Notes: generated by a model not told the origin, from the sequence alone. A DNA stretch of 64,000 nucleotides from an uncultured Pseudomonadota bacterium (GCA_902763905.1 CACWUA010000001.1:11-64010), one strand, 5' to 3'. Numbered from the stretch's first letter, positions 2,155 through 28,285 are shown. A program made the numbers and translations.

Positions 2155-2271
2155 GAACAGTGTATTTAAATCTTTTTCATTGAGAGTTGTGCATTTTAGC
2201 ATCAGTCTCTTGCGTTTGCAAAAAACAAACTCTAAATAACTCTCATAGAAAAGAATTCAAAGAGTAAAAAA

Positions 2272-3402
2272 ATGGCAGATACCGAATACTATGATTTGTT
2301 GGAAATAAGTCCGACCGCCTCACCGGAGGAGGTTAAGAAGGCCTTTCGCAAACAAGCGATGAAATATCACCCTGACCGCAATCCGGGGGATAAAGAAGCC
2401 GAGCAAAGATTTAAGCAAATTAATGAGGCTTATGAAGTTTTGAAAGATGAGCAAAAACGTGCCGCTTATGACCATTACGGCAAAGAAGGTATAAACGGAA
2501 TGGGTGGCATGGGCGCCGGCGGATTTGACTTCGGCGGCGGATTTGCCGATGTATTTAATGATATTTTTTCGGAATTTATGGGCGGTGGACGCGGACGTGG
2601 CAATAGAGCCGCTTACGAACAACGCGGCAGTGATTTGCGCTACAATCTCAATATAACGCTGGAAAAAGCCTTTAGCGGAACCGAAGAAGAAATTACCTAC
2701 CCGACCACCGAAAATTGCGAAGCTTGCCACGGCCACGGTACCAAAAACGGCGAAAAACCGTCAGAATGTCCGACTTGTCACGGCAGCGGCAAAGTGCGTC
2801 GGCAACAGGGCGGATTTTTGTTTTTTGAAACTGTCTGCCCGACTTGCGGCGGCAGCGGTTATGCCGTAACCGATCCGTGTCCGAAATGTCATGGTGCGGG
2901 ACAGAAAAAAATCAATAAAACCATCAAAGTCAAGATTAAACCTGGGATTGAAAGTAATATGCGGATTCGCGTTGCCGGTGCCGGTATGGCTGGTATTCAC
3001 GGCGGCGAAAACGGCGATTTGTATGTCGGAGTGGTTGTTGAGCCGCATAAGCTCTATGAAAGAAACGGTGCCGATTTATATACGGCAGTTCCGATTTCGG
3101 TTTGCTGTGCCATTTTAGGCGGTAAAGTGGAAATTCCGGGGATTGACGGCAAAAAAGTTGAAGTAAATGTGCCGGCCGGCACGCAAAATGATACTTTGAT
3201 TAAAGTCAAAGGCGAAGGAATGTGCCTGTATGATACGGAGAAGCGCGGCGATTTATATGTCAGCATCAAAGTTGTGATTCCGACTAAGCTCAGCGACAAA
3301 CAAAAGGAGCTGATTGAAGCTTTCCGTGCTGAAAGCAAAGACGATTCTTGCCAACCGGAAATCAAGGGATTTTTTGATAAAGTAGCCGACTTATTTAAAT
3401 AG
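2272..3402 (+). CDS. dnaJ: Chaperone DnaJ
   Basis: J domain with an HPD motif (KYHPDRN), a Gly/Phe-rich linker, four CxxCxGxG zinc-finger repeats and a C-terminal substrate-binding domain. Confidence 0.92.
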   Translation: MADTEYYDLLEISPTASPEEVKKAFRKQAMKYHPDRNPGDKEAEQRFKQINEAYEVLKDEQKRAAYDHYGKEGINGMGGMGAGGFDFGGGFADVFNDIFSEFMGGGRGRGNRAAYEQRGSDLRYNLNITLEKAFSGTEEEITYPTTENCEACHGHGTKNGEKPSECPTCHGSGKVRRQQGGFLFFETVCPTCGGSGYAVTDPCPKCHGAGQKKINKTIKVKIKPGIESNMRIRVAGAGMAGIHGGENGDLYVGVVVEPHKLYERNGADLYTAVPISVCCAILGGKVEIPGIDGKKVEVNVPAGTQNDTLIKVKGEGMCLYDTEKRGDLYVSIKVVIPTKLSDKQKELIEAFRAESKDDSCQPEIKGFFDKVADLFK

Positions 3403-3551
3403 AAATGTTGTGAAAGATATACATACAATTTGAATAATCGGTCTTGTTGTCTGCAATCTGTATGGCAGTATTCAGGCGTACCCTTCGGCGATAGTTAACA
3501 ACATTTTATGCTTGTGGACTTTTATCCGGATTTTTAAAAACCGTAAATTAT

Positions 3552-5575: not shown

Positions 5576-5706
5576 TGATTTCCTCGTTGCTGATGACTGC
5601 ATTATGCCTTTTATAAGTTAAAGAAATCATAAAGTTTGGGAGCAAAATTTAAAATACTTTGCGCTGTACATAAAACATGATTATATTTTACCCAAGGAGA
5701 AAAAAT

Positions 5707-8421: not shown

Positions 8422-8441
8422 CAAATCCTTGTTTTATTGAC

Positions 8442-8471
8442 CAAATCGGCAATAAAATACTAAAATGTAAC
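8442..8471 (+). promoter_or_regulatory. Putative sigma70-like promoter (TTGACC-18-TAAAAT) for the Cys-rich protein gene
   Basis: A -35-like and a -10-like hexamer with 18-nt spacing lie ~75 nt upstream of the ATG at 8545. This is a sequence-pattern call only. Confidence 0.25.
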
Positions 8472-8544
8472 AAAAAATTCACATTTCTTCTTTAAAAAGT
8501 ATGTTACACTTATGATGTGGGGATATGTTTAAAGGAGAAATAAA

Positions 8545-10326
8545 ATGCGTATTAAGATGAATATGTCTCGATGTATAGGAGGCATGGCTGTAATGGCTTT
8601 ATGGTTTGTTACGGCCGTATATCCGGCGAGGGCAGACGTCTGCTTTTTGCCGACGGGAATATGTGAGCAAGGAGTTACCACCAAAAACGACACCGCCCAG
8701 TGCACTTTGAATCTCAGTATTTACAAGAGTGCGCCGGTAGAGGGCAAAAAGTGTACAAAAGTCGAGGTTCCCGGGTGTCCGACGGTGTATGAATGTTTTG
8801 ATGACAGCTGCGATGCCCGCGGTTATAAGATCAAAGGCACCACCAGTCAGACTACCTACCCGAACAGTTATAATCCGAATACTTGGACCTGTAACAGTTG
8901 TTTGCAGGGTAAGACGTATTTTTGGAATTGTACTCCGAAACCTTGCTCTAGAGGTACCACCAAAGCCAAAGCATCTTGTGCGGCCGGTTATGAGTGGCAA
9001 GCTCAGAATGATTACGGAATGTCCGGTAATGATAAATGCGGAACTTGCGTTATGAGCAGCTGTCCGTCCGGAACAACTTCGGCTCCGGCCAGCGGATGTC
9101 AAATTTGCGAAGTTAGCAGCAGACTGGTAAATGGCACTAAGTGTTACAAATGCCACAGCATGTCAACTGATTATAAAACTCAAACGCAGATTGACTCTAC
9201 ATACAGAAGAAACTTAGCCGGTTCTTGCTATCACTTTAATTCCAAACAAGCAGCTGACAACACAGTATGTTACAATGTTACGGAAAGTGAATGCGGCACT
9301 GATCAATACAAAGGTAAAGCAACCGTCAACGGCCAGATGGCTTGTCAGTGCGTTAATTATGCATACACTTTTGTAACAACAGACGGCAAAGAAGAAGTCA
9401 ATCTTAATTTTCCGGCAACCGGCGGTACTAGCAGTGTAGGGATAAGTTCGGCAAGGAGTGCTACATATTATGGCGGTGGTTTCAGTGAAGGAATTTATTT
9501 TTCGTCTCGAAATACTGAAGGCAGCGGTTTAAGTGTTAGCACATCTGGTAACGTAACAACAATATCCGCTCCTAAAAATGAGGATCAAACCACGGATAAA
9601 ACTTATACCGTACAACTTATCCAACAGTATTCAAACAAAGTAATTACCATCCATGTAAAAGTGGCTCATGATGCTTGTCCGAATGATTATAAATTTGATG
9701 ATAAATGTGAGCAAACCGGTTGGAGAACAAAAACCGATAACAGAACATCTACCACTGGTAAAGCGTGCTATAAGTGCTATAATGATAATTGCTCGACAGG
9801 GTTTACCAAGGGAACAACTCCGACTAACGGCAACTATGATACCGAGACAACACCGTATGGCTCTAACTGCTATAAAGCAAAGCCGGATGATTGCCCGAGC
9901 GGATATACCAAGGGTTCAACTCCGCTGCCGACAAATCACTATAACACCAGCACCACGCCATTTGGTAGCAACTGCTATCAGCAGATATCGGATGATTGCA
10001 CATACGGTTCTCTGAATCCGGGGTACTGCCCGTATGGCCGGAGTTATGTAGGTAAATCAACTTTAGGCAATGATTGCTATGAATGCGATTCGCCGTCTTA
10101 TTGGTGGGATGACGATGACGACGATGACGACGACGATGACGATGATGATGGTTGCCCAGCCGGTGAAACAATGACTACACACGCAGGTTGCTGTAAATGG
10201 GGTGAATTATATCATACTAGTGGATATTATAGCTGCTGCGAGTGCGGTTCAGATTCCGATTGCCCTAGTACAGGCATCCATGGTACGTATATTGGATGTG
10301 TCGGTTGTGAATGTGAGGGCTATTAA
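8545..10326 (+). CDS. Secreted Cys-rich, Thr/Ser-rich repeat protein with a poly-Asp(14) tract (no recognisable family)
   Basis: An AGGAGA RBS lies 7 nt upstream. The N-terminus is signal-peptide-like (MAVMALWFVTAVYPARA|DV). The protein has more than 60 Cys and internal repeats (TTPYGSNCYKAKPDDCPSGYTKGSTP / TTPFGSNCYQQISDDCTYG). A D14 run is followed by a Cys-dense C-terminus. Confidence 0.6.
   Translation: MRIKMNMSRCIGGMAVMALWFVTAVYPARADVCFLPTGICEQGVTTKNDTAQCTLNLSIYKSAPVEGKKCTKVEVPGCPTVYECFDDSCDARGYKIKGTTSQTTYPNSYNPNTWTCNSCLQGKTYFWNCTPKPCSRGTTKAKASCAAGYEWQAQNDYGMSGNDKCGTCVMSSCPSGTTSAPASGCQICEVSSRLVNGTKCYKCHSMSTDYKTQTQIDSTYRRNLAGSCYHFNSKQAADNTVCYNVTESECGTDQYKGKATVNGQMACQCVNYAYTFVTTDGKEEVNLNFPATGGTSSVGISSARSATYYGGGFSEGIYFSSRNTEGSGLSVSTSGNVTTISAPKNEDQTTDKTYTVQLIQQYSNKVITIHVKVAHDACPNDYKFDDKCEQTGWRTKTDNRTSTTGKACYKCYNDNCSTGFTKGTTPTNGNYDTETTPYGSNCYKAKPDDCPSGYTKGSTPLPTNHYNTSTTPFGSNCYQQISDDCTYGSLNPGYCPYGRSYVGKSTLGNDCYECDSPSYWWDDDDDDDDDDDDDDGCPAGETMTTHAGCCKWGELYHTSGYYSCCECGSDSDCPSTGIHGTYIGCVGCECEGY
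10108..10149 (+). repeat. (GAY)14 trinucleotide microsatellite encoding poly-Asp
   Basis: Fourteen consecutive GAT/GAC codons lie inside the Cys-rich protein gene. Confidence 0.85.
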
Positions 10327-10380
10327 TCTCAATCAGACAGGTTAATATACCCAATCCATAATCAGGTACAAATATAAAAC

Positions 10381-10411
10381 AAAGGGAGGTGGTTTTATCC
10401 TCCCTTTTTTG
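10381..10411 (+). terminator. Rho-independent terminator (GGGAGG-loop-CCTCCC followed by T7)
   Basis: A 6-bp GC stem with a 9-nt loop followed by TTTTTTT, directly downstream of the Cys-rich protein gene. Confidence 0.7.
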
Positions 10412-10459
10412 TTGCATCTTGCGGATTCTTATGCTATACACCTCATCTGAGGTATAAAC

Positions 10460-11032
10460 ATGGCTGATGATGATAAATATAAAAGATGTCCGGAATATTG
10501 TCCGTTTTTGAAGGCTAACGGCACGTTTTGTGAATTGTTTCGCCGACCGCTGCAAACTGTTCAAGGAATATCACAAAAATGCGAAGAATGTAAAAATCCG
10601 GAACAGCGTAAAAGTTCTTATAAAGCACTCGGATTGTCTGTAGATGCTCGTGAACAGATATGGCAAAAAGCAATCTTGAAATATAACGAGATAGAACTGG
10701 GTAAAAAACGTGAAGAAGAAGGTGTGCGCAAAAAATTTGCGGCTCTTTTGGAAGATAAATACGGAGCACGTCCTCCGCTTGAAGGTAATGCGTTCTTAAA
10801 GAATTTGATAATCAATCTTTATATGGTGCTTGATGCCACCGAGCGCAGTATGATGGCGGCCATCTTAAACGGGCGCAACGGCGATAGATTGATTGAAGCC
10901 ATTGAACGTGCGCCCAAAGATGAAACTTTACTGCGTAATTTTCGCCGTGAACTTGATGGGCAATTTCAAGAGCATCAGCTGGAAATTAAACGAGAACAGC
11001 AGCAAAGAGACAATATAAATCAGCGTATTTAA
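10460..11032 (+). CDS. Hypothetical protein with an N-terminal Cys cluster (zinc-ribbon-like) and a charged coiled C-terminal half
   Basis: The ORF is 190 aa and a GAGGT Shine-Dalgarno lies 5 nt upstream. The N-terminus reads CPEYC..C..C-x2-C. No family was recognised. Confidence 0.45.
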   Translation: MADDDKYKRCPEYCPFLKANGTFCELFRRPLQTVQGISQKCEECKNPEQRKSSYKALGLSVDAREQIWQKAILKYNEIELGKKREEEGVRKKFAALLEDKYGARPPLEGNAFLKNLIINLYMVLDATERSMMAAILNGRNGDRLIEAIERAPKDETLLRNFRRELDGQFQEHQLEIKREQQQRDNINQRI

Positions 11033-11094
11033 AATATTTGTTGTATTTTTGTCAAATTGGTTTATAATCTATATAAATCAAAGGAGCAATGATA

Positions 11095-13023
11095 ATGACA
11101 GTTGAGACATTACTTACCAGAACCAAAGACAATTGTGTTATCGCATTTACCGTTTACTTTGGCAATGCGGCTGAAAAAACGCGCTTAAAACACGAGTGCG
11201 AAAACTTGTGCCGAAACCTGAATTATAATGAGTTTAACAGCAATATGCTGCGCTCGCACGGGATATCCTTTGATGCCGACAATACCAATTTTTTACACAA
11301 AGAAATTTCCGGATATCATTATCGCAAAGACCGTGCAAACTTTCGTAATGATATGCGTACCGATCCGCCGGCACAAACAAACACGTTGTCCCTATCCTAC
11401 CGGCTTACCGATGATGAATTTCCGGAGATGTTAAAGAATCTCGGTTTTAAAATCACACCGGTTGATAAGGCGTATAATGTGCGCTATAATCCTTCTCAAG
11501 GAAAGTTTGAGGCAGAAAATTTTGTAAGTACTACAGCAACTGTTTATTCAGATGACCGTAAAATAGAAATAGTCCGTAATCATTTTCGTTTTTCGAGTGC
11601 CGATTATCGCCGCTTAAACGAACTAAAAAATGATTTTTTTAATGCAAGGCAAAGCAATCCGCACTTAAGCATGTCATCTTATGTAAGCGCAATTCCGGAT
11701 TTACGCGACAGAGCCTTATTTGATTTTTATGCCCGCGAAAAAAGTAAAGTGGACAATCGCCGGACGACAATAGCTCACGAAATCAAGCATATTAAAAACG
11801 CTGTGTTACGAGACGGTTTAAACCTTAAGTCAAATAACAAACGCTTAAGCGTTGAAAATTATTACCGTATTGCCGTAGAAAACGAGCGTAGTGCGTATTT
11901 AGAAGAACTTGTGCAGAATATTAATGAGTATTTGCAAAAAGGTAATTATAACGATTTTTCGATGTTTTATGTTAATAATGCGGATTTTGTTGCTGAGCTG
12001 AAGCGCTTGCGTACACCGGCCGAACGTTTGGCATACGTGCGAAATTGGCCGCAATTGCTGGCAGTAAAAATGCGTGATTTTAACAGTAATTATTTGGATA
12101 AATACTTTAATCAGTTTAAGCAAATAACCGAATCGAGTATTGAAAATGCACCGCTCAATGCGCAGCCTGACAATGACGATGCAGAGTTCAAAAAATTGCG
12201 CTCGCTATTTTATAATTATCAGATTTATAATCCGGCGTCACATAGTATGGAATCCGTGAATTTGGCGGATTATCTTACTGCTGATTTGGAGATAAGTATC
12301 AATGATAGAGTGCGTCGTGAAATTATTGAACCGCAGCAAAATTGTTTGAATAGGCAGTTAAGCGATTTTGCCAGCGATAAAGCTGCCGGAAACATAAATC
12401 CGGAATTGATTGAGCCGGCAAAAGCACTAATGCGCGGAGGATTGCAAAGCAGCGAGTTTATAAACGAAGTGGATAATTTTCGTGTCTCTTCTTTGTATGA
12501 AGATGATGGTAATTCATTTCCGCAGCCGACAGCACCGTCGATTCCCAGCGATCATGCTCAATGGAGCAACAATTTGCAGCAATATTGGAGTAATACTGTC
12601 GGATATACCGAACTCGCCAAGAATAATGAAGAATATAAGTTTAAGATTAATGGTGCAACAGTACGGTACTCTTCGGATAAAGATGTTCAGGTTAGTCAAA
12701 ATGCAAATTACCAGTTGTATGTCAAGTTATTGAATGAACCGAGCAAACAGAATGCTCCGATTGAATTTTTGGAGACGCTGCGCAAAGAACAAAAACTGCT
12801 TCTTTATATTGCCTGTATCAATAACGGACGCAAACCTATCGGAGCAGTTCCGACAGATTTTTCGGATATTGAAAATTTGCAAGGCATAGCTCCGGCAGAA
12901 ATAAATAAATTCCGCCATCGGATGCAGCAACAATCAGGTGCGGCTCAAAATGCCAATGCGCAAAGCACTCAAACTCGGGCTCAAAAGATGTGTATGCAAA
13001 AGACTATGCAAAATACGCGCTAA
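11095..13023 (+). CDS. Hypothetical 642-aa protein with an HExxH..E (gluzincin-like) motif and no signal peptide
   Basis: TIAHEIKHIKN contains an HExxH motif, and ENERSAYLEE ~35 aa downstream is a candidate third zinc ligand. The C-terminus is Gln/Asn/basic-rich. The ATG at 11095 was chosen because it lies 9 nt after an AGGAG Shine-Dalgarno, whereas the ATG at 11089 is too close to it. Confidence 0.5.
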   Translation: MTVETLLTRTKDNCVIAFTVYFGNAAEKTRLKHECENLCRNLNYNEFNSNMLRSHGISFDADNTNFLHKEISGYHYRKDRANFRNDMRTDPPAQTNTLSLSYRLTDDEFPEMLKNLGFKITPVDKAYNVRYNPSQGKFEAENFVSTTATVYSDDRKIEIVRNHFRFSSADYRRLNELKNDFFNARQSNPHLSMSSYVSAIPDLRDRALFDFYAREKSKVDNRRTTIAHEIKHIKNAVLRDGLNLKSNNKRLSVENYYRIAVENERSAYLEELVQNINEYLQKGNYNDFSMFYVNNADFVAELKRLRTPAERLAYVRNWPQLLAVKMRDFNSNYLDKYFNQFKQITESSIENAPLNAQPDNDDAEFKKLRSLFYNYQIYNPASHSMESVNLADYLTADLEISINDRVRREIIEPQQNCLNRQLSDFASDKAAGNINPELIEPAKALMRGGLQSSEFINEVDNFRVSSLYEDDGNSFPQPTAPSIPSDHAQWSNNLQQYWSNTVGYTELAKNNEEYKFKINGATVRYSSDKDVQVSQNANYQLYVKLLNEPSKQNAPIEFLETLRKEQKLLLYIACINNGRKPIGAVPTDFSDIENLQGIAPAEINKFRHRMQQQSGAAQNANAQSTQTRAQKMCMQKTMQNTR

Positions 13024-13154
13024 AAGTCGACCTCGATAAATGAGCAAGAAACTTGCAATTTGCAAAAAAATGATTTACGGTACTCAAAAGAGTAAAACAC
13101 CTCTCCAGAGTCAAAAAAACAGCCCTTATCGGCATTAGGAGTTTTGGGATAAAA

Positions 13155-14495
13155 ATGGATAGCAAAACAATATATGCTCTGTCGACATTGTTCGGCAAGT
13201 CAGGAATAGCGGTCATACGAATTTCCGGAAGCGATGCTTTTTCAGTATTTGATAAATTGACGGATATTGATTCTGCAAAAGCAATAAGTCGCAAAATGTA
13301 TTATTCGAAGATTTTTGACAGTGTTTCACATGAAACATTGGATAATTGTATGATAGTCGGTTTTCGTGCGCCTAACTCGTTTACGGGAGAAGATACGGTA
13401 GAAATCAACTGCCATGGCTCTAAAGCTGTAATTCGCAGTATATTGGAAGCTTTGTCTGCCCTGCCCTCTTTTCGTTTAGCCGAGCCGGGAGAGTTTTCGC
13501 GCCGCGCTTTCTATAACGGGAAAATGGATTTAACCGAGGCCGATGGTTTGGCAGACTTAATTGATGCAGAAACTAAAATTCAGCAAAAAACAGCGTTACG
13601 CCAAATGGGAGGAACACTGTTCAACCTCTATAATTCATGGCGCGAAGAACTTGTGGCAATGCAAGCGTATTTGGAGGCTTTTATTGATTTTCCGGATGAA
13701 GAAATTCCTGAGGACACTGTTTTTAAAATTGAAAACACCGTATTTAAATTGATGGAGCAAATATCCGATCATATTGAGGATAATAAGATTGAGGAACGAC
13801 TGCGCGATGGGTTTCAAGTAGTTATATCCGGTCCGACCAACGCCGGTAAATCAAGTTTGATAAATGCACTGGTTAAAAGAAATGTGGCTATAGTTTCCGA
13901 TATTGCCGGAACAACTCGTGATGTTATTGATGCGTACGTTGATATAAATGGTTTTCCGGTTATATTTTCCGATACGGCCGGATTGCGTGAATCATCGGAC
14001 ATTATAGAGCAATTGGGCGTGAAGCTGGCTCAAGAAAAAGTTGCCGCGGCCGATTATAATATTTTCTTGTTTGATGCAGAAAACACTTCACCGGATATTT
14101 TTGCTCAATATTGTAAGCAAAACAGTCACTATTTATTGGTGGCAAATAAGGCAGATAAGATTTCAAACTTTCGCAAAAACGAGCTCGAGGCGCAGGGGTG
14201 CATTGTCATCTCCGCTAAAAATAATGAAAATATTTCTGCAATTTCCAATCGTTTATCTCAATATTTTGATTCGATATATCAACAAAGTTCTGCATCTCTG
14301 ATTACCCGACATCGCTATAAAGAGTCTCTTAAGGAATGCTTGGATAACTTGCAAAGGTTTAATTTGCAAAAGAATATTGAACTTGCTGCCGAAGATATTC
14401 GCTTGGCTTGTCGTGCCATAGGTAAAATTACCGGTCGCGTTGAGGTTAATGAAATACTCGATAAGATATTTAGCAGTTTTTGTATTGGAAAATAA
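13155..14495 (+). CDS. mnmE: tRNA modification GTPase MnmE (TrmE)
   Basis: N-terminal domain GIAVIRISG, a G domain (GPTNAGKSSLINAL, DTAGLRE) and the C-terminal CIGK motif. Confidence 0.9.
   Translation: MDSKTIYALSTLFGKSGIAVIRISGSDAFSVFDKLTDIDSAKAISRKMYYSKIFDSVSHETLDNCMIVGFRAPNSFTGEDTVEINCHGSKAVIRSILEALSALPSFRLAEPGEFSRRAFYNGKMDLTEADGLADLIDAETKIQQKTALRQMGGTLFNLYNSWREELVAMQAYLEAFIDFPDEEIPEDTVFKIENTVFKLMEQISDHIEDNKIEERLRDGFQVVISGPTNAGKSSLINALVKRNVAIVSDIAGTTRDVIDAYVDINGFPVIFSDTAGLRESSDIIEQLGVKLAQEKVAAADYNIFLFDAENTSPDIFAQYCKQNSHYLLVANKADKISNFRKNELEAQGCIVISAKNNENISAISNRLSQYFDSIYQQSSASLITRHRYKESLKECLDNLQRFNLQKNIELAAEDIRLACRAIGKITGRVEVNEILDKIFSSFCIGK
13322..13337 (+). promoter_or_regulatory. parS-like site (TGTTTCACATGAAACA, 1 mismatch to consensus)
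   Basis: One mismatch to the 16-bp TGTTTCACGTGAAACA palindrome; the site is inside mnmE. Confidence 0.5.
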
Positions 14496-14665
14496 CACTG
14501 TATTTAAAGAAATTGAATCAAATTTTTAACTTTCTTTAATAAGATTTTGAAAAGACTCGTCAAATTTTGAATGTATGAGCAGTGTATTTAAATAAATATA
14601 TTTGATTTTTGTTTGCAATTTAAAATGACTTGTTTTATGTTAGGCGCAGTTTAAAAGAGGTGAAA

Positions 14666-16513
14666 ATGATCGAGCAAACAGATGTAATTGTGGTCGGCGG
14701 TGGTCATGCCGGCTGTGAAGCAGCTGCTGCAGCTGCTCGCATGGGTGTAAATACCCTGCTTATAACACATAAAATTGATAAGATAGGTGAAATGTCATGC
14801 AATCCGGCAATAGGCGGCTTGGGCAAAGGGCACTTGGTGCGTGAAATTGATGCTTTAGACGGATTGATGGCTCGCGTGATTGACAAGGCCGGTATCCAGT
14901 TTCGTATGCTGAACTTATCTAAGGGACCTGCCGTTCGCGGACCGCGTGCGCAAGCCGATCGCTCGCTATATAAAAAATTTATGCTCGATGAATTACGTAA
15001 AATCAATAAGTTAGATATAATGGAAGCGTCTGTCGAGGGGCTAATTATAGAAAAAAATCATATCTCCGGCATAGTGTTGTCTGATGGCAGAAAAATTTCT
15101 GCTGCAGCCGTTGTTCTTACTACAGGTACTTTTTTAAATGGAATAATGTTTACCGGCCATCAAACGTCTGAAGGCGGACGTATCGGTGACGAGTCATGTA
15201 AGGGAATAACACCGTATTTAAAACAGGCCGGACTGACATTGGGGCGGCTGAAAACAGGCACTCCGGCTCGTCTTAACGGTAAAACGATTAATTGGGAAAT
15301 TTTGGCGAAACAAGCAGGCGACGAATTGCCTCAAGCCTTTTCATTTTTAACTGATAAAATCACGAATCCGCAGATTGAGTGTGGAATAACCTGCACAAAT
15401 GAATCAACACATAAAATTATTCGAGAAAACTTTTCAAAATGCGCGCTTTTTTCGGGTTTGATTACCGGTCGTGGCCCGCGCTATTGTCCGAGTATCGAAG
15501 ATAAGTTGGTGCGTTTTGCCGATAGAACGTCGCATCAGATATTTTTGGAACCGGAGGGTTATGACACTGATGTTGTATATCCTAATGGTATTTCGACTTC
15601 ATTGCCGGCTGATGTGCAAGATGCCTTTATTCATACAATGATGGGCTTGGAAAATGTGGAAATTCTGCGTTACGCCTACGCTATTGAATATGATTATGTT
15701 GATCCGCGGGAATTAGACCATTGTTTGCAAACCAAAAAGGTAAAAGGATTATATCTGGCCGGACAAATTAATGGTACAACCGGATACGAAGAAGCAGCAG
15801 CGCAAGGACTGTTGGCTGGAATTAACGCGGCATTGAGCGTTGCAGGCGGCGAACAAGAATTTTATATAGATCGCAGTCAAGGATATATCGGAGTCATGGT
15901 GGACGATTTGATTACCAAAGGCGTTGATGAACCATATCGTATGTTTACATCGCGCTCTGAGTACCGCTTAGTGTTGCGGGCTGATAATGCTGATATGCGT
16001 TTGACTGAATTGGGGTATAAAATCGGCTGTGTGAGCGAAGATAGATACAGCGTATTTAAACAAAAAAAACAAGCAATTGAATCTTTTGATATGTATTGCA
16101 GGTCTGTTCCGGTACCTTTTTCTGAAATAGAGAAGCAAGGTTTGAGTGTTAAGCATAATGGCAAAAAGACACTGAAAGATGTTATGAGTTACCCTGATGT
16201 TTCACGTGAAACAATGTGCAAAATTGATTCTAAAATCAATGAGATTGATGATAAAATTTATGAACAAGTTGAAATTGATGCAAAGTATTCGGGGTACATA
16301 AAGCGTGAATATGAGGATATTGCTGTGTTTAAACGCGATGAAAATCTAAAAATACGTGAAGATATTGATTACACCAAGATAGGCGGACTCTCAACCGAAA
16401 TGATCCATCGCTTTTCAACAGTTCGCCCTAAAACTATCGGAGAGGCCTCGAGAATCACCGGCGTGACTCCGGCTGCCATAACAGCATTATTGGGATATAT
16501 TAAAAATGCTTAG
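14666..16513 (+). CDS. mnmG: tRNA uridine 5-carboxymethylaminomethyl modification enzyme MnmG (GidA)
   Basis: An FAD-binding N-terminus ([15 protein letters not shown]) and the full-length GidA architecture. A GAGGTG RBS precedes the ATG at 14666; the in-frame ATG at 14630 is unlikely. Confidence 0.9.
16198..16213 (+). promoter_or_regulatory. parS site (perfect TGTTTCACGTGAAACA)
   Basis: Exact 16-bp parS consensus palindrome inside the mnmG coding sequence. Confidence 0.7.
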
Positions 16514-17351
16514 CGTTCAAAATTATTCATATCATAATCACACCGATTTTTCTGACGGCATAGATTCTCTTATCGCCATGGTTAAGCGAGCTAAAGAAAT
16601 CGGCTTTGCCGAACTTGGTATCAGCGATCATTTAATTGTCCACAAAAATATGTATCAAAGTCCGAGTTGGGCTGATATGCAGCAAAAAAGTGCGGCATAT
16701 ATATATAATGCAGATTTTAAAAGTATATTGGATAAGTATCGTTATCACTGTGATGAAATACGCCGGCTTTCACGTAGCGAAAATTTCAAACTCTATGTTG
16801 GTTTTGAGGTCGATTATTTTACCTACGATGGCTGGGAAGAAGAATTTAAATGGTTTGTATCACAATTGGATTATGATTATTTGCAGAGCGGAAATCATTT
16901 TTTTTGCAACGAGAGCTGTGAAAAAATTATAAATATGGCAAACTTCTTACTGCTATGCCAAGATAATCAATTGCAATATAAATATATTGCGCAGCATTTT
17001 TCTATATTAAAAAAAGCGGTAGAAAGCAGAATGTTCAAATTTCTCGCTCATTTTGATTACTTAAAACGATTTTGCGGAAATGCTTATAGATTTGATCTCT
17101 TTAAGAATGATATTGCTGTAGTGTTAGATGGCTTACAGCAAACGCAAACAGCGCTGGAGGTTAGTACTAAAGGATTGCGAAAAGCCGGAGAACTCTACCC
17201 AGGTGCGGAAATTTTGCAAGAAACTGCCAAACGCGATATAGCAGTTATTATCAATGATGACGCGCATTGTGCAGCCGAACTGGGAATGAGCTTTGATAAA
17301 GCTGAGGCTGAGCTCGTAAAATATGGTATCACCAAGCGTTTAAAATTTTAG
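16506..17351 (+). CDS. PHP-domain phosphoesterase (histidinol-phosphatase/TrpH-like family)
   Basis: The N-terminus HNHTDFSDG...GISDH matches PHP metal-binding motifs. The start ATG overlaps the mnmG stop (ATGCTTAG). Confidence 0.6.
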
Positions 17352-17416
17352 TTTAATAACCGAGATATTTTGTTGCAAATTTAAAAGAATCTCTCATACT
17401 ATTCTGAGAGGATAAA

Positions 17417-18043
17417 ATGGATATAAATTTTGAATTGCAAAAATATGCTGTTTCACGTGAAACAATCCAAAAATTAAACAATTTTGTGGAAATTCTTCGC
17501 GATTGGAATAATAAGATGAATCTGGTCAGTAAAAATTCTATGAATGACGTTTGGGAACGTCATGTTTTGGATTCGTTGCAATTGCTGGATTATATTCCAC
17601 AAAATGCAAAGCACTTGGTCGATATTGGCAGCGGAGCAGGATTTCCGGCTGTCGTGCTGGCGATTGCTATGCAAGAAAAAATGCCACAAACTAAAATAAC
17701 AATGGTTGAAAGTATTACTAAAAAAACGGTGTATTTAAACGATGTGTCGCAAAAATTAGGTTTATCGAATGTTGAAATTGAAAATAATCGTGTTGAAAAT
17801 ATTGTATTTAAAAGTGTTGATGTTGTTACGGCACGTGCAGTTGCTGCTTTGGATATTTTGTGCGGGTATGCCTATAAAATAATCGGTAAAAGCGGTAAAT
17901 TGCTCTTTTTGAAGGGTAAAACATATGAACAAGAACACGCCGTGGCGTGTCAAAAATGGGGCTATGATTTAACTGTTTATCCAAACAAATACTGCGGCGA
18001 TGGTGTGTTGATGGAATTGTGTAATTTGAGGAAAAAACAATGA
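17417..18043 (+). CDS. rsmG: 16S rRNA (guanine527-N7)-methyltransferase RsmG (GidB)
   Basis: SAM-binding motif DIGSGAGFPAVVLAI, ~208 aa, located between mnmG and parA. Confidence 0.85.
   Translation: MDINFELQKYAVSRETIQKLNNFVEILRDWNNKMNLVSKNSMNDVWERHVLDSLQLLDYIPQNAKHLVDIGSGAGFPAVVLAIAMQEKMPQTKITMVESITKKTVYLNDVSQKLGLSNVEIENNRVENIVFKSVDVVTARAVAALDILCGYAYKIIGKSGKLLFLKGKTYEQEHAVACQKWGYDLTVYPNKYCGDGVLMELCNLRKKQ
17449..17464 (+). promoter_or_regulatory. parS site (perfect TGTTTCACGTGAAACA)
   Basis: Exact parS palindrome at the 5' end of the rsmG coding sequence. Confidence 0.7.
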
Positions 18044-18807
18044 AGATAATTTCGATAGCAAACCGCAAAGGCGGAGTTGGTAAGACTACCACAACAATTA
18101 ATATAGCCACAGCATTGTCAGCTATAAATAAAAGAGTGATGGTAATTGATTTTGATCCGCAGGGAAATGCCACAACGTCATTGGGAATAGCCAAAAAGAA
18201 AAATCAGTATTCATCATACAGTGTTCTGACCGGAGGCTGCAAGGCGGCAGAAGCTATAGTGCATACTGATATTCCACGGTTCGATATAATGCCGTCATCA
18301 CCTGATCTGGCTGCGGCCGAAATAGAGTTGGTGGACTTATCGGATCGTGAGTTTGTATTAAAAAAAGCACTGCAAAACTTGGCACAAAATTATGACTATA
18401 TACTCATCGATTGCCCGCCGTCCTTAAATCTAATAACCATCAATGCTCTTGTTTGTTCTGACTCGGTGATTGTCCCTTTGCAGTGCGAATTTTTGGCACT
18501 TGAGGGGTTGGCAGATTTGATTAAGAATATTAATGCGATAAAGAGAAATTTTAATCCTAACTTAAAATTACAGGGAATTATTTTGACAATGTTCAGCCGT
18601 CAAAATAATTTGAGCAAAATGATTGAGGCAGATGTGCGTAAATACTTCGGCGATAAAGTTTATCGCACCGTTATTCCGAGGTGCGTTCGCATTGCTGAAG
18701 CACCGTCATTCGGAAAACCGATTTTGGTATATGATTTTAAGAGTACCGGCGCTCAAGCATATATTCAGCTGGCAAAAGAGTTTTTAATGCGTGAAAAGGA
18801 GGCGTAG
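18040..18807 (+). CDS. parA: Chromosome partitioning ATPase ParA (Soj)
   Basis: Deviant Walker A (KIISIANRKGGVGKTTTTINIA) and a 4-nt overlap with the rsmG stop. Confidence 0.9.
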   Translation: MKIISIANRKGGVGKTTTTINIATALSAINKRVMVIDFDPQGNATTSLGIAKKKNQYSSYSVLTGGCKAAEAIVHTDIPRFDIMPSSPDLAAAEIELVDLSDREFVLKKALQNLAQNYDYILIDCPPSLNLITINALVCSDSVIVPLQCEFLALEGLADLIKNINAIKRNFNPNLKLQGIILTMFSRQNNLSKMIEADVRKYFGDKVYRTVIPRCVRIAEAPSFGKPILVYDFKSTGAQAYIQLAKEFLMREKEA

Positions 18808-19704
18808 ATGAACGCAAGCAATAAAAAATTTGGTTTAGGCAGAGGTATAGAAGCCTTATTGGGAGACGACGAACTGAATTTTAATGACATTGATGGCGAT
18901 GATAAAATTGCAAATAACACTGTATTTAAAGATTTGGATACAGATATTTCGGAAGCTGCGGTTGATAATATAATGCCATGTCAGTTTCAGCCGCGAACAG
19001 CGTTTGATGAGGAATCTCTGCAATCATTAAGTGAGTCCATCAAGGAAAAAGGCGTGTTGCAGCCGCTCTTGGTAAGAAAACAGGGTTTGCATTATGAGAT
19101 TGTTGCCGGAGAGCGCCGTTGGCGTGCCGCACAGAAAGCCGGATTAAAAACCGTTCCGATCATTATTAAAGAATTATCGGATCAAGAAACATTGGAAGTT
19201 GCGTTGATAGAAAATCTGCAGCGCGAAAATTTAACTCCGATTGAAGAGGCGGAGGGATTTAATAAACTTATGCAAGAATATGAGTATACGCAAGATGCTT
19301 TAGGTAAAGTTATCGGCAAATCACGCAGTTATGTTGCCAATAGCCTTCGTTTGCTTGTCTTGCCGGCGGATGTTAAACAAATGCTGAATGATGGTTTGCT
19401 GACGGCAGGTCATGCGCGCGCTCTTGTCGGTTTGCCGGCGGCTTCTGAAATAGCAAAAAAAATTGTAACCAAAGGTTTGAATGTGCGTCAGACTGAGCAG
19501 CTTATCGTCGACATCAAAAACAAAAAAACAAAGCCTGAAAAGATAGCTGATAGGGATTTGTTGCAAATAATTGCCGATTTGGAACGTAAATTAAGCCTAA
19601 AAGTCAAAATTAATGCTGGAAAAAACGGAAAAGGTAGTGTAACATTAAAATATAACAATCCGGCGGAGCTGAGCTCTATACTGGATATTTTGGAACAACG
19701 CTGA
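18808..19704 (+). CDS. parB: Chromosome partitioning protein ParB (Spo0J)
   Basis: ParB box GERRWRAAQKAGL, an HTH region and a C-terminal dimerisation region. The gene abuts the parA stop. Confidence 0.9.
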   Translation: MNASNKKFGLGRGIEALLGDDELNFNDIDGDDKIANNTVFKDLDTDISEAAVDNIMPCQFQPRTAFDEESLQSLSESIKEKGVLQPLLVRKQGLHYEIVAGERRWRAAQKAGLKTVPIIIKELSDQETLEVALIENLQRENLTPIEEAEGFNKLMQEYEYTQDALGKVIGKSRSYVANSLRLLVLPADVKQMLNDGLLTAGHARALVGLPAASEIAKKIVTKGLNVRQTEQLIVDIKNKKTKPEKIADRDLLQIIADLERKLSLKVKINAGKNGKGSVTLKYNNPAELSSILDILEQR

Positions 19705-19722
19705 TTTTATAAGGAGAAGAAA

Positions 19723-19968
19723 ATGCCTACAATCTTGGAAATGATGTTGGAAAATTGCAAAAAAGCCGGATATCACCCGACTGCAAATATTGAAAAAATC
19801 GCCAAAGCTAAAAATATGATGTTTGGCGAAAGCGAATGGCGTCGTTGCCCATGTGATGGGCAAAACGAAAAAAGATACTGCATTTCCGATTTATGCCGCA
19901 GCGATATTGAACGTGATGGTATTTGCCATTGTCGTTGTTATCAAAAATCAGGTACTGACAACGGATAA
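19723..19968 (+). CDS. Small Cys-rich protein with CPC...CHC motifs (ferredoxin-thioredoxin-reductase catalytic-subunit-like)
   Basis: The ORF is 81 aa and a GGAGAAG RBS lies 8 nt upstream. The sequence RRCPCDGQNEKRYCISDLCRSDIERDGICHCRCY resembles the CPC/CHC arrangement of FtrC-type [4Fe-4S]-disulfide proteins. Confidence 0.4.
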   Translation: MPTILEMMLENCKKAGYHPTANIEKIAKAKNMMFGESEWRRCPCDGQNEKRYCISDLCRSDIERDGICHCRCYQKSGTDNG

Positions 19969-19989
19969 ATTTTTATATGGAATTTATGA

Positions 19990-22900
19990 ATGAGGGATCC
20001 CAAGTTTATACATTTGCGGGTACACACGGCGTATTCATTATCGCTGGGAGCCATAACTGTTAAGGATCTTGTTCATAAATTACATGATTTAGATGTGCCG
20101 GCCTGTGCGATTACTGATAGAGGGAATCTGTTTGGGGGTAAAGCATTTTCCAAATTTGCATCTGATGAAGGGATTAAGCCGATACTCGGCTCAGAGTTGA
20201 GTTTACATAACGATGATTCAGAGAATCTATCAATCTCCAAAGGCAATGAACTTGAGCCTAAAAGATTGATTTTGCTGGTGCAAAATCAGGAAGGCTACAG
20301 CTCACTTATGAAACTGTATCGCCGCTATTATATGGATAATACCGAAAACAGTATTTATCCGCAAATTAAAATGGAGAATTTACGGGAATTTAATCGTGGT
20401 CTGATTTGCCTTACCGGCGGCTATGACGGACCGATAGGAGATTTGATTTTACAAAACAGACTTGCCGATGCCGAAAAGAAATTGCTCGAATTAAAAGAGA
20501 TTTTTAATGATAGGTTATATGTGGAAATTTCGCGGGTAGGGTATGCCGAAGAGCAAGCAACCGAAGCACCCTTTTTGGAACTGGCATTTAAACATGAAAT
20601 CCCGCTGGTGGCAACAAATGATGTATTTTTCTTTGATGAGGATATGTATGAGGCACATGATGCTTTGGTTTGTATTGCTGCCGGAGAATATGTAGAAGAA
20701 GAAAATCGCCGCAAATACCTGCCGACAAATCGTTGGCGCAGCGAACAGGAAATGGTCGAGCTCTTTGCTGATATTCCGGAAGCTGTTGAAAATACGGTAA
20801 AAATTGCTGAAAGATGCAATTATTTATCTAAAAAAGTCGAGCCTTTGTTGCCGATATTTATTTGTCCGGACGGAAAAACGCAGGATGAGTTTATTACCGA
20901 AGAAGCGTATAAAGGCTTACACGAGCGTATGGAAGCGCAGGTTTATACACCGGAAACAACACCGGAAGAGCGATTGGCGATTGATGAAGAATATTACGCG
21001 CGCTTGGAATATGAACTCAGCGTAATTAAGAAAATGGGCTTTCCGGGATATTTTCTCATCGTGTCTGATTTTATTCGCTGGTCTAAAACACATGGTGTGC
21101 CAATTGGGCCGGGGCGCGGTTCCGGTGCCGGTTCTATTGTGGCATGGTCGCTTAAAATTACGGACTTGGATCCGATTCGGTTGGATTTGCTTTTTGAACG
21201 TTTTTTGAATCCGGAACGCGTAAATATGCCGGATTTTGACGTCGACTTATGTCAGGAAAATCGTCATAAAACCATTGAATATGTGCAGGAAAAATACGGT
21301 CACGAAAAAGTGGCGCAGATTATAACATACGGCAAGTTGCAATCTAAAGCGGTGATTCGTGATGTGGCACGTGTTTTGCAAATGCCGTATAGTCAAGCAG
21401 ATAAAATTTCCAAGATGATACCACCCGGCTCCGGTGGTAAAAATCCGACACTGCCGGAATCATTGGAACTTGTGCCGGAATTACGGCAGTTACGCGACAG
21501 CGATCCACAGATTAATAAATTGTTTGAGATAGCTATTAAACTTGAGGGATTATATCGCAACTCCGGTATGCACGCGGCCGGTGTGGTTATCGGTGACCGT
21601 CCGCTCGATGAATTGGTGCCTTTGTATAAGGACCCGCGCGCCGATATGCCGGTAACACAATATGACATGAAGTTTGTGGAAGAAACCGGTTTAATTAAGT
21701 TTGACTTCTTGGGTTTGAAAACCCTAACCGTCATTGAGCGCGCTGTGGAATGGGTAAAGAAAATACACGGGATTGAATTGAAAATGGCCGAAGTGCCACT
21801 TGACGATGCCGATACTTATAAAATTTTGCAGGAAGGCAATACCAGTGCTGTATTCCAGTTTGAATCCGCAGGTATGCGTGATGTTATGAAGCAAATAAAA
21901 CCGGACCGTTTTGAAGATTTAATTGCGGTTATTTCATTGTACCGTCCGGGGCCGATGGCTAATATTCCAACCTTTATCAATCGCAAGCACGGCATTGAAA
22001 AAATAGAGTATTTGCACCCTGATTTGGCACCGATTCTTGATGAAACCTACGGGATTATGGTGTATCAGGAACAAGTGATGAAAATTGCCCAAGTGCTCGG
22101 CGGATATACACTCGGCGGTGCCGATAAATTGCGTAAGGTTATGGGTAAAAAAATGGTGGCGGAAATTCCGCACCAGCGAGAAATGTTTACCGAGGGTGCC
22201 ACCAAAAAAGGAATAGATCCTAAAATTTCCGGAGCGATTTTTGACCAGATGGCCAAGTTTGCCGAATATGGTTTTAATAAATCGCACGCTGCCGCATATT
22301 CGCTGATATCTTACCAAACAGCGTATTTAAAAGCCCATTATCCGGTGGAGTTTATGTGCGCAGTTATGGATTTTGATATTACCAATACCGATAAAATCGC
22401 ATTTTATACCGATGAAGTGCGGAAGATGGGATTCAAAGTTTTGCCGCCGGATATAAATTACTCCGATGCGTTATTCAAAGTAGAGGACGGCAATATTCGT
22501 TTTGCCCTTGCCGGAATCAAAAACGTTGGCGAAGCCAATATGAACGCAATCGTTGAAGAACGTGGGCAGAACGGTGTATTTAAAAATCTGTCTGACTTTA
22601 TTCATCGGGTTGATATCAAGCAAATCAACCGCCGACAGATGGAGCAACTGGTAAAAGCCGGAGCTTTTGACGGTTTGGAACAAAACAGAGCAAAATTATA
22701 TAATAATATCGATACGATTTTGCGCCATATTGCCGCAGCGTGCGAAACAAAAAGCAGTGCACAGGCTTCACTGTTCGGAAATCAGGAATTGGCGGCTGAA
22801 GTAAAACTGGATAACACAGGAGGTTGGTCTGACTTAGAGAAGTTGCAGTATGAATCTGAAGCCATTGGCTTCTATTTATCTGCGCATCCCTTGGATGTTT

Positions 22901-23463
22901 ATAAGGACAGCGTTGAAAGATTGGGTATCAAAAAATATACGGACGCAGTAAAAGGTATCAAAAACGGTGATAAGGTGTTGGTTAATCTGGCCGGTTGTGT
23001 GCAGAGCCTGCAAAAGCGCATTGGTAAAACCGGTAAAGAATACGGAATATTGCGGGTAAGCGATACATCTTCGGCTTTTGACGGTTTTGTGTGGAGCGAT
23101 ATGCTGCCGGCGGCAAAAGAGGCGGTGGCACAGGGTGTTCCACTGTTTTTGAGTGCCAAAATAGAGAAAAAAGATGATGATACTCCGCTCCGTATTAATT
23201 TTGATATTGTACGCACACTTGACGAGCAGATTACCTACAACTCCAAAGGTTTGGTAATCGGTATATCCGATGTGGCAGCAGTGCGTCCGATCAGAGAAAT
23301 GCTGTCACACGAAGATTACGGACCTTATAAAATATATATAGTACCGGAACTTGATGACTGGGATGTACGTATACAATTAAAAAACAGTTATGCGTTGGAT
23401 AATGGTAAATTGATGACAGCTATTCGTGCTATATCCGGTGTAACTTTGGTTAAGGAATTGTAA
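19990..23463 (+). CDS. dnaE: DNA polymerase III subunit alpha
   Basis: The PHP N-terminus (IHLRVHTAYSLSLGA), polymerase core (GPGRGSGAGS, FDFLGLKTLTV), OB fold and C-terminal region are all present. Confidence 0.95.
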   Translation: MRDPKFIHLRVHTAYSLSLGAITVKDLVHKLHDLDVPACAITDRGNLFGGKAFSKFASDEGIKPILGSELSLHNDDSENLSISKGNELEPKRLILLVQNQEGYSSLMKLYRRYYMDNTENSIYPQIKMENLREFNRGLICLTGGYDGPIGDLILQNRLADAEKKLLELKEIFNDRLYVEISRVGYAEEQATEAPFLELAFKHEIPLVATNDVFFFDEDMYEAHDALVCIAAGEYVEEENRRKYLPTNRWRSEQEMVELFADIPEAVENTVKIAERCNYLSKKVEPLLPIFICPDGKTQDEFITEEAYKGLHERMEAQVYTPETTPEERLAIDEEYYARLEYELSVIKKMGFPGYFLIVSDFIRWSKTHGVPIGPGRGSGAGSIVAWSLKITDLDPIRLDLLFERFLNPERVNMPDFDVDLCQENRHKTIEYVQEKYGHEKVAQIITYGKLQSKAVIRDVARVLQMPYSQADKISKMIPPGSGGKNPTLPESLELVPELRQLRDSDPQINKLFEIAIKLEGLYRNSGMHAAGVVIGDRPLDELVPLYKDPRADMPVTQYDMKFVEETGLIKFDFLGLKTLTVIERAVEWVKKIHGIELKMAEVPLDDADTYKILQEGNTSAVFQFESAGMRDVMKQIKPDRFEDLIAVISLYRPGPMANIPTFINRKHGIEKIEYLHPDLAPILDETYGIMVYQEQVMKIAQVLGGYTLGGADKLRKVMGKKMVAEIPHQREMFTEGATKKGIDPKISGAIFDQMAKFAEYGFNKSHAAAYSLISYQTAYLKAHYPVEFMCAVMDFDITNTDKIAFYTDEVRKMGFKVLPPDINYSDALFKVEDGNIRFALAGIKNVGEANMNAIVEERGQNGVFKNLSDFIHRVDIKQINRRQMEQLVKAGAFDGLEQNRAKLYNNIDTILRHIAAACETKSSAQASLFGNQELAAEVKLDNTGGWSDLEKLQYESEAIGFYLSAHPLDVYKDSVERLGIKKYTDAVKGIKNGDKVLVNLAGCVQSLQKRIGKTGKEYGILRVSDTSSAFDGFVWSDMLPAAKEAVAQGVPLFLSAKIEKKDDDTPLRINFDIVRTLDEQITYNSKGLVIGISDVAAVRPIREMLSHEDYGPYKIYIVPELDDWDVRIQLKNSYALDNGKLMTAIRAISGVTLVKEL

Positions 23464-23464
23464 G

Positions 23465-24403
23465 ATGGGCAATGATAATCAATATACATTTTTGAGAGTT
23501 TGTCGAACATTCTTAAAAGCAATTTTGCACACTTTTGTGCAATGGAGAATGTTTATCGTTTATGCCGCGTCGCTGACGTTTTTGAATGCTCTGTTTGGTC
23601 GTTGGACTTATTCCTGCAATACGGATATAAAATATTGGTGCTCTTTTGCTCCGGAGAACAGATATATTTTTATAATATATTTGTTATTTTACTGCGGAGC
23701 GGTGTTTTATCTCTTTGCTTCTTTTATAACAGACTTTAAGAACAGTGTATTTAAAGATACTCTTTTTAAGCCTCGTGATATGTTATGTTGTGTTTACTAT
23801 AAAATGCGTATGACATTGTTGCTGTTTATTTTTACTGTCAGCTTAATTCTGGCACTGAGCGGAGCTATATATATAATTCAGAAGCCGGCAGATCCGGATT
23901 TCATAATAGAATTTTGCTGGTTCCTTCTGACCTTTTCTTTGTTGCTCTGGCCGCTATTTATGATACGCTGTTGTGCATGTTTTGCATATTATCTGCAAAC
24001 GGGTAGGTTAGAAATAAAAAAAGTATTTAGCAACACTTCAGGTCGAACACATGTCAGCATAGTTTGGTTTATGCTGCTCATGATGACTCTGCTGATATTG
24101 AATATGCGCTTTATGTTTGATGCAATTTATGTCGAACAGCATTACAATTATTTATTTACAGCTGTTGCAGTAGAATTTCTCGGCAGTGTGTTTAAGTTTA
24201 TATGCTTGGCATTGTATCTTTTGCTCTTTTATTCTCAATATGTGCAAATGGAAAAGAATTCGGCAGAAAAAAATATGGTCTTGGCAAACGATGACAATGC
24301 ATCGGGCAGCCTTGCCATAACACCAACATTATACAATGCATTGGGTAAAAAGAAAAAACATAAGATAAAGTCAAAAGCTGTAAGCCGGAAGAAAAGGAAC
24401 TGA
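23465..24403 (+). CDS. Hypothetical polytopic membrane protein
   Basis: The ORF is 312 aa with ~7 predicted hydrophobic helices and a Lys-rich C-terminus. Its ATG lies 1 nt after the dnaE stop. Confidence 0.45.
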   Translation: MGNDNQYTFLRVCRTFLKAILHTFVQWRMFIVYAASLTFLNALFGRWTYSCNTDIKYWCSFAPENRYIFIIYLLFYCGAVFYLFASFITDFKNSVFKDTLFKPRDMLCCVYYKMRMTLLLFIFTVSLILALSGAIYIIQKPADPDFIIEFCWFLLTFSLLLWPLFMIRCCACFAYYLQTGRLEIKKVFSNTSGRTHVSIVWFMLLMMTLLILNMRFMFDAIYVEQHYNYLFTAVAVEFLGSVFKFICLALYLLLFYSQYVQMEKNSAEKNMVLANDDNASGSLAITPTLYNALGKKKKHKIKSKAVSRKKRN

Positions 24404-27119: not shown

Positions 27120-27149
27120 GTCGTTGACTAATTCGTTTTAGTTTGTTAG

Positions 27150-27186
27150 AACGGCGGCATTATCACGATGTCGTCGTTCTTTTTTA
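27150..27186 (+). terminator. Rho-independent terminator downstream of hppA
   Basis: GAACGGCG...CGTCGTTC stem (1 mismatch) followed by TTTTTTAT. Confidence 0.45.
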
Positions 27187-27200
27187 TAAAGGAGTTTGTT

Positions 27201-27830: not shown

Positions 27831-27859
27831 CTTTTGCTTGCAATTTTGTTTTGATACGC

Positions 27860-28023: not shown

Positions 28024-28055
28024 GTTGTGATATTAACAAAAGAGGAGTTACGCAA

Positions 28056-28283: not shown

Positions 28284-28285
28284 AA

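Follow-up and report, generated by a model that had tools for sequence, protein, structure and literature searches.

Here we describe a strand-polar DNA motif of 15 nt in the centromere region of an uncultured Pseudomonadota bacterium. It recurs in a stretch of 64,000 nt (GCA_902763905.1 CACWUA010000001.1:11-64010), which we call the window and whose coordinates are counted from its first letter. The motif runs in a single orientation through the genes mnmE to parB, is interleaved with parS sites, lies on one side of the candidate replication origin (oriC), and is under purifying selection at the DNA level. We think there is about an even chance that the array consists of sites for one putative sequence-specific DNA-binding protein acting with or beside ParB-parS. 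An earlier reading of the window (the original prediction) had offered a binding site of a nucleoid or partition protein near parABS as one candidate role, and this survives as the best reading.

A one-stranded motif interleaved with parS

Alignment of the flanks of the window copies gave a full element of 15 nt, AAC-R-N-Y-GTATTTAAA, with an information content of ~26 bits. Its core, GTATTTAAA, is the commonest 9-mer of the window and has 13 matches on the + strand and none on the - strand, with 2.1 copies expected. These copies are confined to 2156-23755, and a scan of the remaining 40 kb of the window found none on either strand, in agreement with the predicted absence of copies past 24 kb and of reversed copies. 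The 10-mer on which the original prediction was built, TGTATTTAAA, has eight matches, all on the + strand, against 0.68 expected (0/100 shuffles reached 8), so its count, strand and excess over chance were borne out. The matches start at 2161, 14499, 14583, 17730, 17803, 18921, 22575 and 23746; the predicted positions 17740, 22576 and 23747 were off by 1-10 nt. A second form, CGTATTTAAA, has five matches, again all on the + strand (~0.7 expected; no shuffle got that many), starting at 11024, 13739, 15213, 16051 and 22322. Three of these had been placed at ~13742, ~16058 and ~22322, and those at 11024 and 15213 had been overlooked. The word GTGTATTTAAA is present five times. Exact matches to AACASTGTATTTAAAGA stand at 14494, 18916 and 23741, and with up to three mismatches allowed it has 11 sites (0.67 expected). 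Spacing from copy to copy ranges from 73 to 8863 bp.

By MnmG-based retrieval, the window belongs to uncultured gut/rumen Alphaproteobacteria, with its best match, at 95% identity, in a metagenome-assembled genome from goat rumen; an exact look-up of the TypA of the window gave no record. Further loci of the clade, referred to here by L numbers, were retrieved via homologues of DnaE, TypA and Rho, and every genome is a metagenome assembly. The motif is found at orthologous positions and on the same strand across the mnmE-mnmG-rsmG-parA-parB block in at least 16 clade loci (MnmG identity 68-95%, G+C content 31-45%), with 7-13 copies per genome, which answers the proposal to look for conservation in related genomes. 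The consensus of 79 aligned copies is (A)(A)A-A-C-R-N-Y-G-T-A-T-T-T-A-A-A, with no conserved bases beyond it, and the L001 lineage accepts the variant GTTTTTAAA. Outgroups from the Rhodobacteraceae and Kordiimonadaceae have parS, but neither the motif nor an analogous oriented word. No exact copy was found in 1.27 Mb of non-clade metagenomic DNA, and viral contigs held singletons only, in both orientations. Together with the shuffles, these counts reject chance or AT-richness as the origin of the motif.

The motif copies and parS sites of the window are as follows, with an open reading frame abbreviated as ORF.

2156..2170, + strand: motif AACAGTGTATTTAAA; typA-dnaJ spacer, 2 nt past the typA stop; peripheral, lineage-specific
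11019..11033, + strand: motif ATCAGCGTATTTAAA, 1 mismatch; its TAA is the stop of hypothetical ORF 10460-11032; kept in L017 at 920
13322..13337, no strand: parS-like TGTTTCACATGAAACA, 1 mismatch; within mnmE; kept in L017, L106 and L108
13734..13748, + strand: motif AACACCGTATTTAAA; within mnmE; core copy, found in all clade members
14494..14508, + strand: motif AACACTGTATTTAAA; overlaps the stop codon of mnmE, where the mnmE-mnmG spacer begins
14578..14592, + strand: motif AGCAGTGTATTTAAA, 1 mismatch; mnmE-mnmG spacer
15208..15222, + strand: motif AACACCGTATTTAAA; within mnmG, peptide ITPYLK; core copy
16046..16060, + strand: motif TACAGCGTATTTAAA, 1 mismatch; within mnmG, peptide RYSVFK; core copy
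16198..16213, no strand: canonical parS TGTTTCACGTGAAACA; within mnmG
17449..17464, no strand: canonical parS TGTTTCACGTGAAACA; within rsmG
17725..17739, + strand: motif AACGGTGTATTTAAA; within rsmG, peptide KTVYLN; core copy
17798..17812, + strand: motif AATATTGTATTTAAA, 1 mismatch; within rsmG
18916..18930, + strand: motif AACACTGTATTTAAA; 5' part of parB, peptide NNTVFKD; kept in L017, L101, L106 and L108
22317..22331, + strand: motif AACAGCGTATTTAAA; within dnaE; lineage-specific, present in L017
22570..22584, + strand: motif AACGGTGTATTTAAA; within dnaE; lineage-specific
23741..23755, + strand: motif AACAGTGTATTTAAA; within membrane ORF 23465-24403; lineage-specific, in L017 at 13645

The genes and spacers named in the original prediction (the typA-dnaJ and mnmE-mnmG spacers, mnmE, mnmG, rsmG, parB, dnaE and the membrane ORF) were all correctly assigned. 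Several copies can be followed among relatives. The 14494 copy has counterparts in L003, L017, L101 and L106, and the mnmE-mnmG spacer holds two to three copies, 31-106 bp apart, in L098, L101 and L106. The 16046 copy is kept in 12/13 clade genomes and lost in L001. Where the window has the 17725 copy, relatives have two copies spaced by 45 nt. At the periphery, the 2156 copy is missing in L102, a relative with 98% TypA identity, and the 22317 copy is missing from dnaE of L098, L101 and L100 and degenerate in L018. Two repeat features also stand in the mnmE-mnmG spacer: a ~105 bp tandem duplication in L098 (4100-4310), whose units end in a motif copy with a TTGAATTGACTCAA inverted repeat upstream, and TTGA/TCAA dyads similar to that inverted repeat at 14510-14570 of the window.

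To rank conservation without reference to the motif, every 15-nt window of the codon alignments of mnmG (11 genomes), mnmE (9) and rsmG (9) was scored by nucleotide identity. The motif came first in mnmG, where the 15208 copy is invariant at 15/15 positions and parS is second at 14/15. It was also first in mnmE (the 13734 copy), and in rsmG parS ranked first and the motif second. The codons of the first mnmG copy, ATA ACA CCG TAT TTA AAr, are identical in 13 genomes, with five synonymous positions frozen, and the adjacent codons vary; outgroups have unrelated residues in place of ITPYLK. Since synonymous sites are frozen and the outgroup peptide is unrelated, it is the DNA that constrains the protein and not the reverse. 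The coding copies use two frames, N-x-V-F-K and T-x-Y-L-K/N, and the third frame, which includes TAA, is used only at gene ends, such as the stop of ORF 10460-11032. The two frames and the intergenic copies, with the frozen synonymous sites and the unrelated outgroup peptides, reject a codon or amino-acid artefact and uphold the predicted DNA-level signal. The motif is a DNA-level element under purifying selection as strong as that on parS, and it dictates amino acids in MnmE, MnmG, RsmG and ParB.

Three parS sites, in mnmE, mnmG and rsmG, are interleaved with the motif copies, and confinement to the centromere block holds in all relatives, which substantiates the suspected tie to the parABS locus. 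Like sites of the parS/ParB system, the motif is short, specific and multicopy, sits a few kb from parAB beside oriC and within mnmE, mnmG and rsmG, and is conserved at the nucleotide level over deep divergence. Unlike parS (TGTTNCACGTGAAACA, a 16-bp palindrome with no orientation), the motif (AACRNYGTATTTAAA) is non-palindromic, one-stranded and restricted to one lineage; its sequence is unrelated, with no half-site in common, and it coexists with parS. Because canonical parS stands at sites of its own, the motif is a second element and not parS itself, and a variant parS was rejected on the same ground. That ParB, or a factor associated with it, recognises the motif as a second sequence, in a composite centromere such as P1 parS with its two box types, seems decidedly improbable to us. 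The strict co-localisation and interleaving with parS (in L101 a copy starts 13 bp after parS) and the equal conservation of the two would suit it, but ParB has an ordinary three-domain architecture and ordinary length, perfect canonical parS is present, the motif has no likeness to the parS half-site, and motif-parS distances are not fixed.

Distribution along the chromosome and relation to oriC

Copies with at most one mismatch were counted in eight representative clade loci. There are 61 in the 68 kb of the mnmE-to-parB core (0.89/kb), all on the + strand, and 12 in 202 kb of clade DNA outside the core (0.06/kb), none of them more than ~15 kb away from it. Clade loci at a distance from parAB (L100, L102, L104) have none; in L100 and L104, dnaE or typA lies elsewhere in the genome. 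Relatives with 79% and 75% DnaE identity likewise lack copies in dnaE, though dnaE still follows parB, which indicates that the copies in dnaE, at the typA end and in the membrane ORF of the window are recent, position-dependent gains. L106 has gained three copies in and after asmA, 13-15 kb upstream. Peripheral copies of this kind (dnaE, typA end, AsmA) are gained and lost between lineages, only near the centromere, a pattern that position-dependent selection would produce. Polarity is nearly without exception: copies with at most one mismatch are all on the + strand, save a single - strand match in L002 (1 mismatch) that looks like chance. The few - strand GTATTTAAA matches in relatives stand without the AACRNY prefix and were likewise taken as chance.

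No DnaA-box cluster was found in the window, and oriC was placed instead, by computational inference, between the divergent genes coaE and rho of relatives. In L109 (taken from a 1.89 Mb contig) and L112, this interval holds a cluster of canonical DnaA boxes (TTATCCACA), and GC skew shifts from ~-0.3 to +0.1 exactly there. The candidate oriC intervals are given below; L002, L005, L008 and L014 have the same oriC signature and array layout.

L109 9539-9886: candidate oriC, converging perfect DnaA boxes and GC-skew sign change
L112 9493-9840: candidate oriC, same features
L005 2660-2960: candidate oriC, same features

The L005 oriC region also contains TTAA-N6-8-TTAA repeats reminiscent of CtrA sites. 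The array begins in mnmE, 3-5 kb right of the candidate oriC, and is directed away from oriC. In L109 and L112, neither strand has a copy in the 9.5 kb left of oriC, and the other replichore shows no mirror image of the array. The parS sites have copies to their left and to their right with no flip in orientation, so the polarity follows the global direction shared by replication and transcription, and is not directed toward the centromere.

This layout bears on the possibility that the motif is a genome-wide polar word that is only seemingly clustered, either Chi for AddAB or one of the FtsK orienting polar sequences (KOPS) or architecture imparting sequences (AIMS) for FtsK. Both had been put forward in the original prediction. 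The orientation is that of Chi and KOPS on the leading strand, and addB is indeed encoded in the window, running off its right edge from 62088. Chi/KOPS-type motifs must spread along replichores and be mirror-inverted across oriC. The motif is absent from 24-64 kb of the window and from L100, L102 and L104, and at 15 nt and ~26 bits it is far above any known Chi (5-8 nt) or KOPS (8 nt), as is well established. With clade DNA outside the core near-empty over 202 kb and the 9.5 kb on the left side of oriC free of inverted copies, both the KOPS/AIMS-like and the Chi-like role fail; they are refuted for the sampled DNA, and we grant them scarcely any probability overall.

A polar element linked to replication would suit the polarity, and we regard it as a minor possibility. 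The motif could act as a Tus/Ter-like one-way barrier or pause site that shields the origin and centromere from forks or nucleases moving toward oriC, or it could be sensed on the single-stranded lagging-strand template, giving a replication-timing cue for segregation as the centromere is replicated. The single orientation away from the mapped oriC points this way, as does the absence of a flip across parS, with a polarity that follows the global direction and not the centromere; by geometry, the copies would lie on the lagging-strand template of the rightward fork. On the other hand, a device for general fork control should be present on both arms and there is nothing on the other side of oriC, no Tus/RTP-like gene or domain was found among the neighbouring genes scanned, and known Ter arrays surround the terminus, not the origin.

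Transcription runs in the same direction, and a signal that acts during transcription, read from the non-template strand or the nascent RNA (RfaH-ops-like, causing pausing or anti-termination), is a comparably unlikely reading. Such a signal would keep or pause RNA polymerase across the mnmE-to-parB genes as it moves through ParB-coated DNA. It would account for copies on the coding strand of co-directional genes (102/129 copies lie within coding sequence on the sense strand, and 25/129 are intergenic) and for an array that spans a long co-oriented gene run. However, the parB operon of L005 closes with a terminator-like hairpin, and thyX, downstream of this hairpin, contains a perfect antisense copy within its 3' end. 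Other copies end unrelated transcription units (typA, an acylphosphatase gene, AsmA), only near the centromere, and equally long co-oriented runs at 36-55 kb of the window hold none. Measured against the RfaH ops element, which acts from the non-template strand in operon leaders, the copies occupy the coding strand, but most lie far inside genes or at gene ends, with the thyX copy antisense. The motif has no Rfam match and no structure-forming potential, and no known RNA family or tRNA was found in the window.

Other classes of element were tried and rejected. A CtrA box (TTAA-N7-TTAA) is not present, as the motif contains one TTAA and the 79 aligned copies show no conserved partner 7 nt off. 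The same alignment has no conserved -35 element, and the copies do not overlap promoter-like matches, which removes an extended -10 promoter. Plasmid iterons and direct-repeat centromeres (parC, sopC), which are regular tandem repeats inside a few hundred bp of non-coding DNA, do not agree with the spacing of 73-8863 bp or with the location of most copies in coding sequence. DNA uptake sequences (USS/DUS) number thousands genome-wide in both orientations, and the motif is local and on one strand.

Genes and repeats around the array

The first 27 kb of the window begin with typA, dnaJ, a class A penicillin-binding protein gene (- strand) and polA, followed by three genes, at 8545, 10460 and 11089, for proteins without a family match. 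Next come mnmE, mnmG, a PHP/HisJ-like phosphatase gene, rsmG, parA and parB, and last a small Cys-rich ORF, dnaE, the membrane ORF and an H+-pyrophosphatase gene. At the far end, a truncated alphaproteobacterial addB extends on the + strand from 62088 to beyond 64000 (TIGR02786, E=6.5e-158), with no stop codon in the window.

The three unmatched proteins are encoded in succession at 8545-13023 (593, 190 and 644 amino acids) and have no Pfam or NCBIfam match. In the 190-residue protein an N-terminal segment is Cys-rich (CPEYCP...C...CEEC), and a motif copy includes the stop codon of its gene. Homologues of the 190- and 644-residue proteins are located between typA and mnmE in L101 and L106. Directly 3' of parB, at 19723-19968 (+), is an 81-residue Cys-rich ORF (CPC...C...CHC) that is kept in L005, L098, L101 and L106-L108; its Cys pattern presumably recalls the catalytic subunits of ferredoxin-thioredoxin reductase. 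In L109, four tandem PHP/HisJ-like phosphatase paralogues stand between mnmG and rsmG (17630-20951), where the window has one (16506-17351), and none of these L109 paralogues contains a motif copy. Between the parB operon and thyX, L005 has ~0.8 kb of non-coding DNA (19570-20340) with purine-rich tracts and repeats that resemble miniature inverted-repeat transposable elements (gtgaccttaactttgggctgaaagcttagaaagtgagg twice).

Further right, at 27146-35738, is a - strand gene block with negative GC skew and large ORFs without a family match. It includes a type IV secretion system coupling protein (VirD4/TraG type) at 28334-30547 and resembles a portion of an integrated conjugative element. L098, L101 and L112 have a homologue of the coupling-protein gene near the origin region. 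At 45733-47660 (+), a second ParA/MinD-like ATPase (260 amino acids) precedes a protein that has a DnaJ domain and, at its C terminus, an SH3 domain, and neither the motif nor parS was found near this pair.

A putative second centromere element

Among known systems, the motif would function most like the origin-domain site families that accompany parS, though it differs from them in sequence, copy number, packing and strict polarity. In Bacillus subtilis, the RacA site ram is a GC-rich palindrome (TGACGCCGGCGTCA) found in 25 regions over ~600 kb, a second clustered site family near the origin that handles the origin region beside Spo0J-parS (PMC4914108). The motif is comparable in its placement, but it is AT-rich, polar and packed into ~7-20 kb, and no RacA-like gene was identified. 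The Escherichia coli element maoS is a non-palindromic 17-nt sequence near oriC that organises the Ori region in cis, with the lineage-restricted protein MaoP (PMC5023128). Whereas maoS is a single copy beside maoP, the motif has 7-13 oriented copies and no adjoining candidate gene. In common with such origin-domain organisers, the motif is a site confined to the origin-proximal region and distinct from parS; a dedicated trans-acting protein was not found nearby. A further parallel may be drawn from the Alphaproteobacteria themselves, since DnaA, a protein with an asymmetric site, is mentioned as binding the Caulobacter centromere, at the parS region, besides ParB (Mera et al. 2014, as cited in PMC6667618).

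The motif can also be set beside elements whose polarity is their function. Tus-Ter, RTP-Ter and CTCF-type barriers (~15-23 bp, orientation decisive) are, like the motif, asymmetric sites in same-orientation series. Unlike Ter, which flanks the terminus and is mirrored on two arms, the array adjoins the origin on one arm, and a barrier role would be hypothetical. Orientation matters in DnaA-box arrays as well, but the clade oriC has the canonical TTATCCACA, which the motif does not resemble, and a DnaA box was rejected. Chi (AddAB/RecBCD), KOPS (FtsK) and the SpoIIIE recognition sequences (SRS) share with the motif a strand polarity co-oriented with replication; they are 5-8 nt long, genome-wide and inverted between replichores, with the skew of KOPS-type 8-mers changing sign at oriC and dif, whereas the motif is 15 nt long, local and one-sided.

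For the favoured reading, in which a protein would bind the motif as double-stranded DNA, each copy may be a high-affinity site. The one-orientation array is co-extensive with the parS cluster from mnmE to parB, reaching up to ~15 kb into the flanks, and the putative protein and ParB-parS together could mark or organise the centromere/origin-proximal domain through anchoring, compaction, or control of ParB or SMC. The common orientation could mean that the factor works directionally; alternatively, a tight asymmetric complex may be tolerated only in the orientation in which replisomes and RNA polymerase can pass. Several points weigh against this reading. No candidate for the binding protein was found among the genes in and around the array (tRNA/rRNA modification enzymes, the HisJ-like phosphatase, HD-domain proteins, ParAB), and its gene may lie elsewhere in the genome. 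The clade-specific PHP protein was rejected as a binder since it is a HisJ-like histidinol phosphatase, and so were the inserted genes, whose products are HD-domain proteins, EPSP synthase and NUDIX proteins. A protein that simply anchored or marked the region would also need no single orientation, and both reasons given above for the one seen are inferred. Replication, transcription and motif orientation coincide in every genome, the sole exception being the single thyX copy. Finally, the genomes scanned are metagenome assemblies and not complete chromosomes, on which distant secondary clusters may exist.

A more specific proposal, which we hold only tentatively and consider less probable, is that a second, strand-polar centromere element working together with parS has evolved in a lineage of gut Alphaproteobacteria. 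It would be an array of oriented sites through which a new protein gives a centromere process its direction, or an array that senses replication of the centromere. The directional process might be a one-way block or pause of replisomes, ParB clamps or SMC loop extrusion (compare oriented CTCF sites), and selection on the element would be strong enough to rewrite housekeeping proteins locally. We found no description of the motif in the searchable literature, whether by its sequence or as a non-palindromic origin-proximal element with parS, although such a search cannot prove absence.

In the current view, palindromic parS sites and ParB define the centromere regions of bacteria, and a second cis element now stands in the same few kb. 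If a protein reads the motif, it would be a new player in origin and centromere organisation in Alphaproteobacteria. The polarity would imply a directional step in segregation, in SMC/ParB dynamics or in replication-segregation coupling; to our knowledge, no such step is known in model species, and there is a credible chance that the polarity reflects a new mechanism within the cis-site arrays of origins and centromeres. The motif is also a practical marker by which the centromere/oriC region can be found in these gut and rumen bacteria, which are abundant but uncultured.

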